Positions 33,698 through 38,628 are shown, counted from the stretch's first letter. The stretch: 64,000 nt of DNA from Escherichia coli (GCF_002854065.1 NZ_CP024147.1), one strand, 5' to 3'. The notes: generated from the letters alone by a model not told the origin. Translations and numbers: made by a program.

Positions 33698-33708
33698 TCA
33701 TCGTTCAT

Positions 33709-33803
<95 letters not shown>

Positions 33804-34209
33804 GTCGATGCCGATATGTACATCGTATTCGGCAATTAATGCATAGCACGATTAATTAAATAACCTTAAAAACAATGCCGACTATAAGTCGGCATTGTTT
33901 TATCAGATAAATCCCCTTGTCTGTGATTTAACGGAAATCATACCGTGAGGTTAATCCTAAAATAGATTTTTAATCGTGATTGATTTCGGAAAATACTCAG
34001 ATTAATTACTTTTACTTTTATTTTAACACTATGATTTTTAATGTTATTTATATATAAGTTGTAGCTTATATTTGATATTCATTCCAATTATCCTAAAACC
34101 CCATCTCTAATTCCCCGCGCCGTAATTCGCATGCTTTAGTTGTGTATACTCGATCCCGCCCGAAATGTTTTTGGGTAAATCTCCATTCATTCAATGAAGG
34201 GAAATTGTT

Positions 34210-34452
34210 ATGAAAAAAGTTCTGTATGGCATTTTTGCCATATCTGCGCTTGCGGCGACTTCTGCGTGGGCTGCACCTGTACAGGTGGGCGAAGCGGCAG
34301 GGTCGGCAGCAACGTCGGTTTCGGCGGGTAGTTCCTCCGCGACCAGCGTCAGCACCGTAAGCTCGGCGGTGGGTGTCGCGCTCGCGGCAACCGGTGGCGG
34401 TGATGGTTCTAATACCGGGACCACAACAACCACGACCACCAGTACCCAGTAA
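34210..34452 (+). CDS. yjbE: Small secreted Ser/Thr/Ala/Gly-rich protein YjbE
   Basis: 80 aa; signal peptide [21 protein letters not shown] then low-complexity S/A/G/T-rich tail ending [10 protein letters not shown]. Confidence 0.85.
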
Positions 34453-34565
34453 TAAAGTATGTATCCCCAAAATAATTCGAGTCATCGCATCTGTGGCTTG
34501 AAGTATGAAGGGATTTACCATAACCACACTCCGGTGTGGTTATTCTGCCCCTCTGGAGAAGAGTC

Positions 34566-35204
34566 GTGAAGCGACCTGCACTCATTCTTATCTGCCTGCT
34601 ATTACAGGCCTGTTCAGCCACGACTAAAGAGCTGGGCAATTCACTGTGGGACAGTCTGTTCGGTACGCCAGGTGTACAGCTGACGGACGATGATATTCAA
34701 AATATGCCCTACGCCAGCCAGTACATGCAGCTTAATGGCGGGCCGCAGTTGTTTGTGGTGCTGGCCTTCGCTGAAGACGGACAACAAAAATGGGTCACTC
34801 AGGATCAGGCCACTCTCGTCACACAACATGGTCGTCTGGTGAAGACTCTGCTTGGCGGCGACAACCTGATTGAAGTGAATAACCTTGCCGCCGACCCGCT
34901 GATTAAACCCGCACAAATTGTTGATGGTGCAACATGGACGCGCACGATGGGCTGGACCGAGTACCAGCAGGTACGCTACGCCACCGCACGCTCAGTCTTC
35001 AAATGGGATAGCACCGGTACCGTTAAGGTCGGCAGCGATGAAACCGCGGTTCGCGTGCTGGACGAAGAAGTCTCCACCGACCAGGCGCGCTGGCATAACC
35101 GCTATTGGATCGACAGCGAAGGGCAAATTCGCCAGTCGGAACAGTATCTCGGCGCGGATTATTTCCCGGTGAAAACCACCCTCATCAAGGCGGCAAAACA
35201 ATGA
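34566..35204 (+). CDS. yjbF: Lipoprotein YjbF
   Basis: ORF 34536..35204; likely GTG start giving VKRPALILICLLLQACSATT (lipobox LQAC); 212 aa. Confidence 0.82.
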   Translation: MKRPALILICLLLQACSATTKELGNSLWDSLFGTPGVQLTDDDIQNMPYASQYMQLNGGPQLFVVLAFAEDGQQKWVTQDQATLVTQHGRLVKTLLGGDNLIEVNNLAADPLIKPAQIVDGATWTRTMGWTEYQQVRYATARSVFKWDSTGTVKVGSDETAVRVLDEEVSTDQARWHNRYWIDSEGQIRQSEQYLGADYFPVKTTLIKAAKQ

Positions 35205-35938
35205 TCAAACAAACTTTTGTCGCGTTGCTTTTGAGTGTGGGAGCGTCATCGGTCTTCGCGGCAGGAACCGTCAAGGTGTTCAGCAATGGCAGCAGTGAGG
35301 CCAAAACACTAACAGGCGCAGAGCATTTAATCGATCTGGTAGGCCAACCGCGGCTGGCAAACAGCTGGTGGCCCGGTGCGGTGATCAGCGAAGAGCTGGC
35401 AACGGCGGCAGCATTGCGTCAGCAGCAGGCGTTGCTGACACGGCTGGCAGAACTGGCCGCAGACTCCAGCGCTGACGATGCCGCTGCGATTAACGCCTTA
35501 CGCCAGCAAATTCAGGCGTTGAAAGTGACGGGCAGGCAAAAAATCAATCTTGATCCCGATATCGTCCGCGTTGCTGAACGCGCTAACCCGCCGTTGCAGG
35601 GCAACTACACGCTGTGGGTCGGACCACCACCGTCCACGGTCACGTTGTTCGGGCTTATCAGCCGTCCTGGCTATCAGCCATTCACTCCCGGTCGCGACGT
35701 GGCGAGCTATCTCTCCGGGCAAAGTCTGCTTAGCGGTGCGGATCGTAGCTACGCGTGGGTGGTTTACCCGGACGGACGCACACAAAAAGCGCCGGTGGCT
35801 TACTGGAACAAGCGTCACGTAGAGCCGATGCCCGGCAGCATTATTTATGTTGGCCTCGCGGACTCCATCTGGAGTGAGATGCCTGATGCCCTTAACGCCG
35901 ACATTCTTCAGACTCTGACGCAGCGGATACCTCAATAA
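35201..35938 (+). CDS. yjbG: Periplasmic protein YjbG
   Basis: ORF 35105..35938; start [20 protein letters not shown] (signal peptide); ATGA overlap with yjbF. Confidence 0.85.
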
Positions 35939-38034
35939 TGAAAAAAAGACATCTGCTTAGCTTACTGGCGCTGGGCATTAGCACAGCTTGCTACGGCGAA
36001 ACATATCCTGCGCCCATTGGTCCGTCGCAGTCGGATTTCGGTGGCGTAGGATTATTACAAACGCCCACCGCGCGTATGGCACGGGAAGGGGAGTTGAGTC
36101 TGAACTATCGCGATAACGATCAGTACCGTTATTACTCAGCTTCAGTGCAACTCTTCCCGTGGCTGGAAACAACGCTGCGCTACACCGACGTGCGCACCCG
36201 GCAGTACAGCAGCGTCGAAGCGTTCTCTGGCGATCAAACGTATAAAGATAAAGCCTTCGATCTCAAACTGCGTTTGTGGGAAGAGAGTTATTGGCTGCCG
36301 CAAGTGGCGGTTGGTGCGCGGGATATCGGCGGTACGGGGCTGTTTGATGCGGAATATCTTGTTGCCAGCAAAGCCTGGGGACCGTTCGATTTTACGCTCG
36401 GCCTGGGCTGGGGATATCTGGGCACCAGCGGTAATGTGAAAAATCCGCTCTGTTCAGCCAGTGATAAATATTGCTATCGCGATAACAGCTACAAACAGGC
36501 GGGATCTATCGACGGTAGCCAGATGTTCCACGGTCCTGCCTCACTGTTTGGCGGCGTGGAATACCAGACGCCCTGGCAACCGCTGCGCCTGAAACTGGAG
36601 TATGAAGGCAATAATTATCAGCAGGATTTTGCCGGTAAGCTGGAGCAAAAAAGTAAGTTTAACGTCGGGGCGATTTATCGCGTTACCGATTGGGCCGACG
36701 TTAACCTTAGCTATGAACGTGGCAACACCTTTATGTTTGGCGTCACGCTGCGCACCAACTTTAACGATCTGCGCCCGTCTTACAACGATAACGCCCGCCC
36801 GCAATATCAACCGCAGCCGCAGGATGCCATTTTGCAGCATTCGGTGGTGGCGAATCAGTTAACGCTGTTGAAATACAATGCCGGACTTGCCGATCCGCAG
36901 ATCCAGGCGAAAGGCGATACGCTGTATGTTACCGGCGAGCAGGTGAAATATCGTGATTCGCGCGAAGGGATCATCCGTGCTAATCGGATCGTGATGAACG
37001 ATCTGCCGGATGGGATCAAGACGATCCGCGTTACGGAAAATCGCCTTAACATGCCACAGGTGACGACGGAAACGGATGTCGCCAGCCTGAAGAATCATCT
37101 CGCCGGAGAGCCGTTGGGCCACGAAACGACGCTGGCGCAAAAACGCGTCGAGCCAGTGGTTCCGCAGTCCACCGAGCAGGGCTGGTATATCGACAAATCG
37201 CGCTTTGATTTCCATATCGATCCGGTGCTGAACCAGTCGGTCGGTGGCCCGGAAAACTTTTACATGTATCAGCTGGGCGTGATGGGAACGGCAGATTTGT
37301 GGCTGACGGACCATCTGCTCACCACCGGCAGCCTGTTTGCAAATCTTGCCAACAACTACGACAAGTTTAACTACACCAATCCGCCGCAGGACTCGCACTT
37401 ACCGCGCGTTCGTACCCATGTGCGCGAGTATGTGCAGAACGATGTCTATGTGAATAACCTGCAAGCCAACTACTTCCAGCATCTGGGCAACGGCTTCTAC
37501 GGTCAGGTCTACGGAGGTTATCTCGAAACCATGTTTGGCGGTGCGGGGGCAGAAGTGTTGTATCGCCCGCTGGACAGCAACTGGGCGTTTGGTCTGGATG
37601 CCAACTACGTTAAACAGCGCGACTGGCGTAGTGCAAAGGATATGATGAAATTCACCGACTACAGCGTGAAAACCGGACATCTGACCGCCTACTGGACGCC
37701 ATCTTTCGCTCAGGATGTGTTAGTTAAAGCCAGCGTCGGGCAGTATCTGGCAGGGGATAAAGGCGGCACGCTGGAGATCGCTAAACGCTTTGACAGCGGC
37801 GTGGTGGTGGGCGGCTATGCCACGATCACCAACGTTTCGAAAGAGGAGTACGGCGAAGGGGACTTCACCAAGGGCGTGTATGTCTCGGTACCGTTGGATC
37901 TCTTCTCGTCTGGCCCGACACGCAGCCGTGCGGCGATTGGCTGGACGCCGCTGACGCGTGACGGTGGTCAGCAACTTGGGCGTAAGTTCCAGTTGTATGA
38001 CATGACCAGCGACCGTAGCGTCAATTTCCGCTAA
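35938..38034 (+). CDS. yjbH: Outer-membrane lipoprotein YjbH
   Basis: 698 aa, signal/lipobox [10 protein letters not shown]; start overlaps yjbG stop (TAATG). Confidence 0.9.
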
Positions 38035-38080
38035 GTCATGGGAAAGGTGCCAGTTTTCGCAATCACTGGCACCCTCATTC

Positions 38081-38359
38081 TTAATGGCCTGTTGAGCCAT
38101 CAGGAACGCAGTTCACCCCCGGTTTGCGATCTGGTGTGTAAAGGCGAAAACATTCTGTCTTCCTGTCCGTCGATATCGGTTGCAGGTCTGGTTGCCTGAG
38201 CGACTGGGCCATCATTGGGCTGGAGACATTGCTTTGCGGTAGGTCGGCTTTATCAGCAGTACCGAGCGGACCAGCATAAGCAGGAAGAACAGAGACTGAT
38301 AACATCAAAGCAGCAAAATAAGGCTTCATTTTTACCACCTTTATCAGGTTATGTTTCAT
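38081..38359 (-). CDS. yjbT: Small secreted protein YjbT
   Basis: 92 aa with N-terminal signal peptide (MKPYFAALMLSVSVLPAYA). Confidence 0.7.
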   Translation of the reverse strand: MKHNLIKVVKMKPYFAALMLSVSVLPAYAGPLGTADKADLPQSNVSSPMMAQSLRQPDLQPISTDRKTECFRLYTPDRKPGVNCVPDGSTGH

Positions 38360-38628
38360 TTGTTCCAGAGGAACATTGTCGATTTTTCGCGCATTGCTGG
38401 TGGCTGGGAATCACCTGAATGGGTGATTTTTGAATTACCGGCTTTGGTGCGGTTTGTCTTGCCGGATGCGCCGCCAGGCGCGGCTTATCCGGCCTACGGG
38501 TAGGTATATCCGGCTTTGGTGGAGGCGCGCTCCAAATCCAGGTTGAACAAAAAATACACAAAAAATATAGATCTCCGTCACATTTTTGCGTTATACAGGA
38601 AGCTCGCCACTGTGAAGGAGGTACTGCT

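Follow-up and report, generated by a model that had tools for sequence, protein, structure and literature searches.

A conserved hairpin between yjbE and yjbF as a candidate leaky terminator within the Escherichia coli yjbEFGH operon

A stretch of 64,000 nucleotides (nt) of Escherichia coli DNA (GCF_002854065.1, NZ_CP024147.1), the whole of which is called the window here, carries the genes yjbE, yjbF, yjbG and yjbH on its + strand at positions 34210-38034, and between yjbE (34210-34452) and yjbF (34566-35204) lies a hairpin that raises the question of what such a structure does inside an operon. The locus is the already known Rcs-regulated yjbEFGH operon, a paralogue of gfcABCD; past work has described its induction through the Rcs phosphorelay and by envelope and osmotic stress, its connection with an uncharacterised exopolysaccharide, and its paralogy to gfcABCD of the group 4 capsule operon (PMC3599342, PMC5105897, PMC5461412, PMC8117528, PMC11494523). 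The hairpin, which a preliminary description of the sequence had suggested could act as an attenuator, is the one feature for which no account was found in the literature searched, an intra-operon terminator-type element with a frozen sequence. With a probability that we put at roughly 0.55, the hairpin and its U-rich tract act inside the operon as a leaky terminator and a 3′ stabiliser, and so favour expression of yjbE over that of yjbFGH.

Structure and conservation of the yjbE-yjbF hairpin

The hairpin occupies positions 34520-34543 (+ strand), with a 10-bp stem formed by ATAACCACAC (34520-34529) and GTGTGGTTAT (34534-34543), 100% complementary and containing four G-C pairs, closed by the loop UCCG. 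The preliminary description had recognised its existence, placing it about one base off and missing the three outer pairs. It folds at -14.8 kcal/mol (z = -5.5), with none of 200 shuffled sequences folding as well, and its pairs form with a probability of 0.97-1.0 in a 160-nt context in seven lineages.

For conservation, 80 species-level loci were fetched with YjbF peptide patterns, independently of the hairpin, and 79 of these came with upstream sequence. The 9-bp core TAACCACAC-NNNN-GTGTGGTTA was present by regular-expression search in 79 of the 79 Enterobacteriaceae loci. When the 60 unique sequences were aligned, 27 consecutive columns were invariant except for the second position of the loop, and pairwise diversity over the 18 core stem columns was 0.000, compared with 0.454 at third codon positions of yjbE, 0.386 in the upstream spacer and 0.200 in the downstream spacer. 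Of 5420 E. coli genomes, 5411 shared an identical 32-nt stretch around the hairpin, with one copy per genome, and a scan of metagenomes for the exact stem returned 120 loci, every one of them in the context of a yjbE-yjbF spacer, with a YjbF match at most 400 nt downstream in 117 and the other three too short or near a contig end. A single copy per genome in 5420 genomes and a sole context in 120 metagenome loci rule out a repeated element. The Enterobacteriaceae loop varied only at position 2 (UUCG, UCCG, UGCG, UACG) and always read C(UNCG)G on the sense strand; the UNCG form was found in all Enterobacteriaceae and metagenome copies and not in Erwiniaceae or Rahnella. The frozen stem, together with a sense-strand loop that always conforms to UNCG, points to selection acting on the RNA.

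Beyond the Enterobacteriaceae, distant loci were found by protein searches and named from cluster members. The identical 10-bp stem recurred in Pantoea, Erwinia, Paramixta and Winslowiella (L204, L206, L207 and L208) with the loops AGCC, GGUU, GUUC and AGCC and 4-5 further U, in an Erwiniaceae-like locus with a YjbF 46% identical to that of E. coli (L090; loop UGCG, U6), and in Rahnella of the Yersiniaceae, with a YjbF 38% identical and a different genomic neighbourhood (L210; loop AUCC, U3). The locus L214, which adjoins wzc, kept the outer UAACC/GGUUA and had its inner four pairs replaced by five other Watson-Crick pairs (GUUGC/GCAAC), with UAUUUUUG as its tail, and a gfc-like paralogue (L216) kept the outer six pairs as AUAACC...GGUUAU, with U6. 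Other sequences took the same place elsewhere, namely an unrelated canonical terminator, AAAAGCAACCC-UCA-GGGUUGCUUUUUUU, of which the U-run is a part (L212), a different hairpin with a U-rich tail in both L215, which adjoins wza, and the K-12 gfcA-gfcB spacer, and a different hairpin with no U-run in Serratia sp. DD3 (L209). All of these distant hairpins fold at -11 to -19 kcal/mol, short flanks included. That a stable hairpin with a U-run after the first gene recurs across the family, even with unrelated sequence, is the signature of an intrinsic terminator inside an operon.

Covariation was uninformative in Enterobacteriaceae, Erwiniaceae and Rahnella, since there was zero stem variation; the pair swaps in L214 were compared by hand, because MAFFT misaligned the divergent hairpins of L214 and L216. 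None of the 18 core stem bases differed between the three families of Enterobacterales, and no wobble intermediates were seen, the loop being free in Erwiniaceae. The presence of other loops on the same stem indicates that the tetraloop is a lineage-specific refinement and not the defining feature of the element.

The spacer around the hairpin has been rebuilt more than once. In its ancestral form it measures ~63 nt and consists of the yjbE stop, ~20 nt, the hairpin, a U-rich tract, GGAG and the GTG start of yjbF, while in E. coli it measures 113 nt. The ~50 extra nt belong to an Escherichia-specific insert (34453-34519, + strand) between the yjbE stop and the hairpin, both ends of which correspond to those of an element of ~130 nt that occupies this position in a Citrobacter species (L036, 2814-3000). 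The insert has an imperfect palindrome of its own, which is the second predicted hairpin of the spacer, and its short E. coli form occurs at one place per genome at E ≤ 0.01. It looks like a short-form enterobacterial repetitive intergenic consensus/intergenic repeat unit (ERIC/IRU) and is a candidate member of that class. In several Citrobacter and Enterobacter, a ~55-nt G+C-rich insert lies instead between the hairpin and the yjbF ribosome-binding site. Since the hairpin is intact despite inserts upstream or downstream of it, its role is independent of the distance to either gene. The downstream insert, with its own inverted repeat GGCCGGG...CCCGGC in eleven loci (L004, L005, L006, L009, L013, L022, L030, L031, L038, L039 and L040), shows that a repeat entered the 63-nt spacer a second time, independently of the first.

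Database and literature searches gave no precedent for the element. No Rfam family was found at the hairpin at E ≤ 1, the only match nearby being a weak one, to part of isrH, within the insert (E = 0.013), and the K-12 RefSeq record has no annotation in the yjbE-yjbF spacer. A literature search, confined to a searchable library of papers, found none joining 'yjbE' with a relevant mention of a terminator, and a search for the stem sequence gave coincidental 10-mer matches only. A DnaA box was considered and set aside as too weak, ATAACCACA agreeing with TTATNCACA, which we take to be the DnaA-box consensus, at only 7 of 9 positions. Three open reading frames over the hairpin or yjbE (34505-34627, + strand; 34093-34527 and 34191-34439, both - strand) were also rejected and treated as by-products of the lineage-specific insert, inside which the first of them starts, and of G+C-rich low-complexity coding sequence.

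Termination, message stability or factor recognition

The U-rich tract UUAUUCUG (34540-34547, + strand) begins within the 3′ arm of the hairpin and extends beyond it. It is eroded in E. coli in comparison with UUAUUUUG in most Enterobacteriaceae and UUAUUUUUU in Erwiniaceae; this erosion in Enterobacteriaceae, strongest in E. coli, suggests weaker termination than in Erwiniaceae, and termination in E. coli is probably partial as a result. A consensus terminator scan, which asks for at least five T in the eight positions directly after the stem, called the hairpins of Pantoea and L090 terminator-like, with 10 pairs and T5-T7 (T5 in Pantoea, T6 after the full stem in L090). The E. coli copy has the stable, G+C-containing stem-loop of an intrinsic terminator and falls short of the U-tract that the scan asks for and that the orthologous hairpins of Pantoea and L090 possess, and it is therefore described here as terminator-type and probably leaky, not as a proven terminator. 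The suggested attenuator stands in part on these grounds: extreme purifying selection, the U-run and the terminator consensus in Erwiniaceae speak for it, while the consensus is not reached in E. coli and the element is not of the leader-peptide type discussed below. A score of the d'Aubenton-Carafa type, calculated with what we take to be its formula, was discarded, because where the U-tract is taken up in A-U pairs it gave negative values even for two clear terminators, that of pgi and the canonical one of L212.

In the reading that we favour, some polymerases would stop at the hairpin and U-tract, and the hairpin would guard the 3′ end of the short yjbE transcript, while the remaining polymerases would pass into yjbFGH and give the full-length message. 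The yjbE message would then exceed the yjbFGH message, placing the small protein in excess over a putative export machine, with YjbE as its substrate or structural component and the coupled products of yjbF, yjbG and yjbH as machinery of fixed ratio. The E. coli hairpin may act mainly as a 3′ stabiliser after processing. We infer that termination or 3′-end protection takes place in vivo and that it sets the yjbE:yjbFGH ratio, and a hairpin kept base for base across three families would mean that this ratio is under strong selection. Such selection would fit a YjbE that is needed in excess, as substrate or structural component and not as an accessory. The 24 nt at 34520-34543 offer a precise handle for uncoupling yjbE from yjbFGH.

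Published transcript data bear on this reading from both sides. A step after yjbE is present in one RNA-sequencing table, in which yjbE changed 6.65-fold, yjbF 2.30-fold and yjbG 2.09-fold (PMC9792984). The gene yjbG has been described as polycistronic with yjbF (PMC8117528), and the locus was reported as an operon by Ferrières et al. 2007, as cited in that paper (PMC8117528). As all four genes are co-induced, read-through into yjbFGH must occur, and any terminator-type element would consequently be leaky.

Several observations count against a terminator. Induction of yjbE, yjbF, yjbG and yjbH was reported as log2 values of 5.74, 5.67, 4.29 and 5.23 (PMC3599342), and in a second data set yjbE was induced 15.4-fold and yjbF 24.3-fold (PMC5105897); such near-equal induction of yjbE and yjbF shows substantial read-through and is silent on absolute levels. 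In addition, yjbE is not among the entries of the 3′-end supplement of PMC7815308. The E. coli tail reads UCUGCCCC directly after the full stem (also TCTGCCCC) and UUAUUCUG after the last G-C pair, and the consensus scan did not call the hairpins of E. coli (tail TCTGCC) or S. arizonae (TTTGCC). Lastly, a plain terminator needs no fixed stem sequence, and the lack of any wobble or compensatory change across three families points to an extra, sequence-specific constraint.

If the hairpin were only an element of RNA stability or processing, the transcript would be cleaved downstream, 3′-to-5′ exonucleases would be blocked at the stem, and yjbE would outlive the rest of the message with no termination at all. 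The repetitive extragenic palindromic (REP) hairpin between malE and malF stabilises its message in this way, by blocking 3′-to-5′ exonucleases. A very stable stem with a C(UNCG)G tetraloop in Enterobacteriaceae, a poor U-tract in E. coli and the equal induction of yjbE and yjbF in two data sets are all consistent with this explanation, under which the outcome of yjbE exceeding yjbFGH is unchanged. An exonuclease barrier has no need, however, of a U-run, yet one stands directly 3′ of the hairpin in most of the lineages examined, above all in Erwiniaceae, and the distant analogue in L212 is a canonical terminator. We consider a purely stabilising role doubtful, while ranking it first among the alternatives to a leaky terminator.

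Next in rank, and also unlikely in our estimate, is that the frozen 20-nt stem is the recognition site of a trans-acting factor that controls read-through or processing, in which case the yjbE:yjbFGH ratio would be regulated; this would be compatible with a terminator. The factor might be an RNA-binding protein, a small RNA, or a dimeric DNA regulator bound to ATAACCACAC-N4-GTGTGGTTAT, and should an RNA-binding protein or small RNA indeed dock on the stem, an idea that we consider unlikely, the ratio of YjbE to its double-barrel export machine would be a regulated switch, conserved in Enterobacteriaceae, Erwiniaceae and Rahnella. Zero substitutions at 18 core positions, while loop and flanks change and YjbF falls to 38-46% identity, would be expected of such a site, and invariant half-sites that flank a variable centre of 4 bp are typical of operators. 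In Rahnella, moreover, the hairpin is combined with an upstream JUMPstart/ops antitermination signal: JUMPstart with ops (GGCGGTAGC) stands upstream of the yjbE-like gene only in this lineage among 12 loci (L210, 2060-2097), and RfaH-type antitermination may override the hairpin there. Against a trans-acting factor, no candidate was found, no Rfam family lies at the hairpin, and the leader of the E. coli operon lacks an ops motif. The palindrome of L214, kept through compensatory inner-stem changes together with a U-run, fits an RNA hairpin better than an operator, and the constraint on the Enterobacteriaceae loop is asymmetric, UNCG being its sense-strand form. Control by RfaH and ops in E. 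coli itself was rejected, as no ops match was found in the leader (33830-34209) and the nearest match with one mismatch lies inside yjbE. The yjbE-like gene of L210 adjoins GerE-family and EAL-domain genes instead of pgi.

The YjbE threonine run, the encoded proteins and the upstream region

YjbE is an 80-residue pre-protein (Pfam PF11106, E = 5e-33) with a 21-residue Sec signal peptide (MKK...AWA, followed by AP; 34210-34272) and a 59-residue mature part, 76% of which is Ser, Ala, Gly or Thr. A run of seven Thr (T7) occupies residues 71-77 (nt 34420-34440), the Thr codons lying 30 nt before the stop. This composition agrees with the preliminary description of a signal peptide followed by an S/A/G/T-rich tail with a poly-Thr run. 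The same description had proposed comparing the length of the run across strains, and variation of that kind is refuted by the criterion which that description itself had set, an invariant yjbE sequence. The YjbE protein accession is the same in the window strain and K-12, though the surrounding DNA differs by 2.5%; yjbE matched at ≥95% identity in 5420 E. coli genomes, and the match was exactly 243 nt in 24 of 24 evenly spaced genome samples. Of the 75 Enterobacteriaceae species whose yjbE could be read, 71 had a nearly unchanged C-terminus with T7 and a final Q or R, the only exceptions being four Kluyvera-type loci with TTTTTSTTT, and among four Erwiniaceae loci three had T7 and the fourth T5. 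In an alignment of Enterobacteriaceae loci, the Thr codons varied synonymously, indicating that the constraint acts on the YjbE protein. A false lead is thereby removed, the poly-Thr run being neither variable nor phase-variable. An insertion of 9 bp in yjbE did arise in one laboratory evolution line (PMC8540638), and such length variation was not seen in natural populations.

Seven consecutive Thr codons 30 nt before a stop, with a hairpin ~20 nt beyond that stop in the ancestral arrangement, bring to mind a leader-peptide attenuator like that of thrL, in which ribosomes slowed on the Thr codons would decide whether the terminator forms. The 3′ arm of the hairpin can form a duplex with the Thr codons, which came to -9 to -11 kcal/mol in each of the lineages tested. 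The local hairpin nevertheless wins the ensemble, with a probability of 0.85-1.0, the duplex with the Thr run being both weaker and farther away, and a ribosome on the Thr run or the stop would not reach the hairpin, judging by the size of its footprint. In E. coli the distance from stop to hairpin has grown from ~20 to 67 nt with the hairpin unchanged, synonymous variation of the Thr codons means that the RNA-level pairing is not preserved, and YjbE, being conserved and exported, is no disposable leader. Attenuation by sensing of Thr codons is very improbable and was rejected on the dominance of the hairpin in the ensemble, the unconserved spacing and the varying codons. That the hairpin is a chance palindrome or a functionless repeat relic, an idea prompted by the repeat-element remnant adjoining it in the E. 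coli spacer, is already refuted by the conservation data, as the hairpin is single-copy, older than the inserts, invariant amid a neutral diversity of 0.39-0.45, and found in one context only in 120 of 120 metagenome matches.

When ten distant YjbE/GfcA-type proteins were aligned, all had in common a signal peptide, a T/A/G-rich stretch and a G/A/V-rich hydrophobic stretch, followed by an acidic or Gly-Ser patch, a Thr run and, last, a short tail with Q or R as its final residue. YjbE and GfcA could not be aligned by BLASTP (E = 65), and the apparent relationship between them is one of shared architecture and C-terminal motif only. It has been suggested that the FapF-like half of GfcD/YjbH secretes amyloidogenic polypeptides (PMC9603273). 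If this were true, it would make YjbE a candidate substrate, a link that is our own.

The gene calls combined the listing of open reading frames with the RefSeq annotation of an identical strain, CUWW06, and the two agreed. The window is E. coli and not K-12: over a stretch of 4.7 kb, identity is 100% with strain CUWW06 and ~97.5% with K-12 derivatives. This lineage is uncommon at 33700-38400, where only 9 of 5470 matching records are ≥99% identical, the best being CUWW06, a Thai wastewater isolate. YjbF is an outer-membrane lipoprotein homologous to GfcB/YmcC, with a GTG start and the lipobox LLQAC (Pfam PF11102, E = 6e-63), and has a solved paralogue in PDB 2IN5 (YmcC/GfcB, E = 4.5e-42). YjbG (35201-35938, + strand) is a periplasmic GfcC-family protein, matching both GfcC_N and GfcC_C (PF20616, 4e-50; PF06251, 2e-41) and the solved PDB 3P42 (E = 2.4e-54), which belongs to the GfcC family by Pfam and which we take to be the GfcC structure. 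YjbH (35938-38034, + strand) is a GfcD-family outer-membrane protein (PF06082, E = 1.4e-270). A search for a solved structural homologue found none for either YjbH or YjbE. The Pfam matches, all far above cut-off, stand in the order YjbE, YjbF, GfcC, YjbH, which is that of yjbEFGH and gfcABCD, and the RefSeq names in the identical strain and in K-12 agree with it, so the identification of the operon in the preliminary description was correct. Past predictions make GfcD and YjbH double beta-barrels (PMC9603273, PMC11494523), FapF-like in their N-terminal and PgaA-like in their C-terminal half, and GfcB and GfcC are described as binding the GfcD barrel (PMC9603273). By analogy with GfcB, GfcC and GfcD, the YjbF, YjbG and YjbH proteins may form one outer-membrane export complex.

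The overlaps that had been noted at the gene boundaries were confirmed by direct reading of the junctions. At yjbF/yjbG, the junction CAATGATCA contains ATGA, a 4-nt overlap at 35201-35204, and at yjbG/yjbH the junction AATAATGAAA contains TAATG, a 1-nt overlap at 35938. Among 73 species loci, the first was ATGA in 63 and another overlap in 9, and the second was TAATG or TGATG in 58. Since the 4-nt and 1-nt overlaps are conserved, translation of yjbF, yjbG and yjbH is probably coupled at a fixed ratio. This fits the coupling suggested in the preliminary description, with overlaps kept across genera, and is not new, as overlaps of 1-4 bp in gfcB-C, gfcC-D and homologous operons have been noted and translational coupling proposed (PMC8592465).

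The yjbF ribosome-binding site GGAG (34555-34558) and GTG start (34566-34568, both + strand) were read directly, and GAGTCGTGAAGCGA was kept in all loci. In E. coli EC190486, from a human rectal swab (L218), IS1A is inserted exactly at the yjbF start (about 1049-1816) with a 9-bp target duplication, GAGTCGTGA, and the ribosome-binding site of yjbF is removed. Sedimentation-resistant mutants obtained in the laboratory carried IS1 in the yjbE-yjbF spacer, activating an Rcs-dependent colanic acid response (PMC8117528). In Nissabacter sp. SGAir0207 (L213, 710-1500), a pgi-linked yjbFGH has no called yjbE, and the conserved hairpin was not found in the ~790 nt upstream of yjbF; this may be a case of yjbE loss.

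The region upstream of yjbE had been described as long, AT-rich and intergenic. It is indeed AT-rich, with a G+C content of 0.25-0.35 over 33800-34200 compared with ~0.53 in the flanks, but it is not empty, holding the pgi terminator, a homologue of STnc430 and a conserved promoter and 5′ untranslated region of yjbE. After the end of pgi (33697), a REP-type repeat (33727-33798, + strand) matches the Rfam family naRNA4/CssrE with 81.3 bits against a gathering threshold of 59.5 and contains the imperfect inverted repeats I2-I4. A 15-bp palindromic hairpin, AAAACAATGCCGACT/AGTCGGCATTGTTTT (33869-33901), is 100% complementary, corresponds to the 3′ hairpin of the STnc430 model alignment, and is likely a bidirectional terminator for pgi (+ strand) and the STnc430 homologue (- strand). 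The latter, a candidate small RNA at 33864-34013 (- strand), matches Rfam RF02053 with 67.5 bits (gathering threshold 47) over the full length of 1-162, and just upstream of it lies a sigma70-like site, ATAACA-16-TAAAAT with TG (34047 to 34020, - strand). STnc430 was syntenic, with 52-164 bits, in six other genera (C. koseri, S. arizonae, E. cloacae, E. whittamii, Kluyvera and Buttiauxella), and RefSeq has no annotation at the homologue in CUWW06 or K-12 MG1655. Pairing of STnc430 with the yjbE-yjbF hairpin was considered and rejected: by eye, UAACCUCAC is complementary to the 3′ arm at 8 of 9 positions, the Rfam consensus has UAAGCUCAA, and the complementarity, not being conserved, is treated as chance.

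Closer to yjbE, the 75 nt before the ATG are almost invariant across seven genera. The upstream block AATTATCCTAAAAC (34086-34099, + strand) forms conserved columns in the seven-genus alignment, and its TCCTA half resembles what we take to be the right half of the RcsAB box. A second block, GTTGTGTATACTCGA (34139-34153, + strand), is invariant in the seven genera, contains a -10-like TATACT (34145-34150) and is, from this pattern, the probable core promoter of yjbE. A consensus promoter scan did not flag this site, owing to its poor -35, as would be expected for an activator-dependent promoter. The 5′ untranslated region contains a hairpin (34178-34206, + strand; inverted repeat I6) that covers the Shine-Dalgarno sequence GAAGGGA of yjbE (34196-34202) and is present in both the minimum-free-energy and the consensus structures. 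Its sequence is nearly invariant, while its energy is not exceptional (z = -1.0), and its conservation over the Shine-Dalgarno sequence suggests post-transcriptional control of yjbE. Downstream of yjbH, a yjbT-like gene for a small periplasmic protein (38081-38359, - strand) is followed by psiE and xylE, with a weak REP/naRNA4-like match (38402-38494) between the yjbT-like gene and psiE. In the whole window, GGCGGTAG occurred 84 times with at most one mismatch, against 40 ± 6.6 in shuffles, and Gly-codon pairs are a possible cause of this excess.

Comparison with known operons and hairpins

The yjb locus shares its four-gene order with gfcABCD: a small Thr-rich signal-peptide protein comes first, then a lipoprotein (YjbF/GfcB), a member of the GfcC family and, last, a double barrel (GfcD/YjbH). 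Both operons likewise have short overlaps at the B-C and C-D boundaries and a hairpin between genes A and B. In contrast to gfcABCD, yjbEFGH is without wza-wzb-wzc-type genes downstream, and the K-12 gfcA-gfcB hairpin is unrelated in sequence to the one between yjbE and yjbF.

The leader attenuators of the thr, trp and his operons resemble the locus in having a run of codons for a single amino acid upstream of a hairpin and U residues. They differ in that no competing antiterminator structure was found here, the distance to the hairpin varies, and what would be the 'leader' is an exported protein under conservation. Hairpins closed by C(UUCG)G, or UNCG more generally, are a class whose unusual stability as RNA was reportedly described in 1988 by Tuerk and colleagues. 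Every Enterobacteriaceae loop examined conforms to this type, U-N-C-G closed by C-G with only N varying, whereas the same stem carries other loops in Erwiniaceae and Rahnella (AGCC, GGUU, GUUC, AUCC).

The closest functional parallel to a leaky yjbE terminator is offered by intercistronic terminators and 3′ stabilising hairpins, which set unequal expression within operons, for example after the gene for the major subunit of fimbriae or at the malE-malF REP hairpin. The yjb hairpin and U-run are similarly placed, after a small and probably abundant first product and before the genes for the machinery, with read-through documented. The yjb element, a putative terminator, differs from these in a U-tract that is weak in E. 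coli and in a stem whose sequence, unlike that of ordinary terminators, is frozen across three families.

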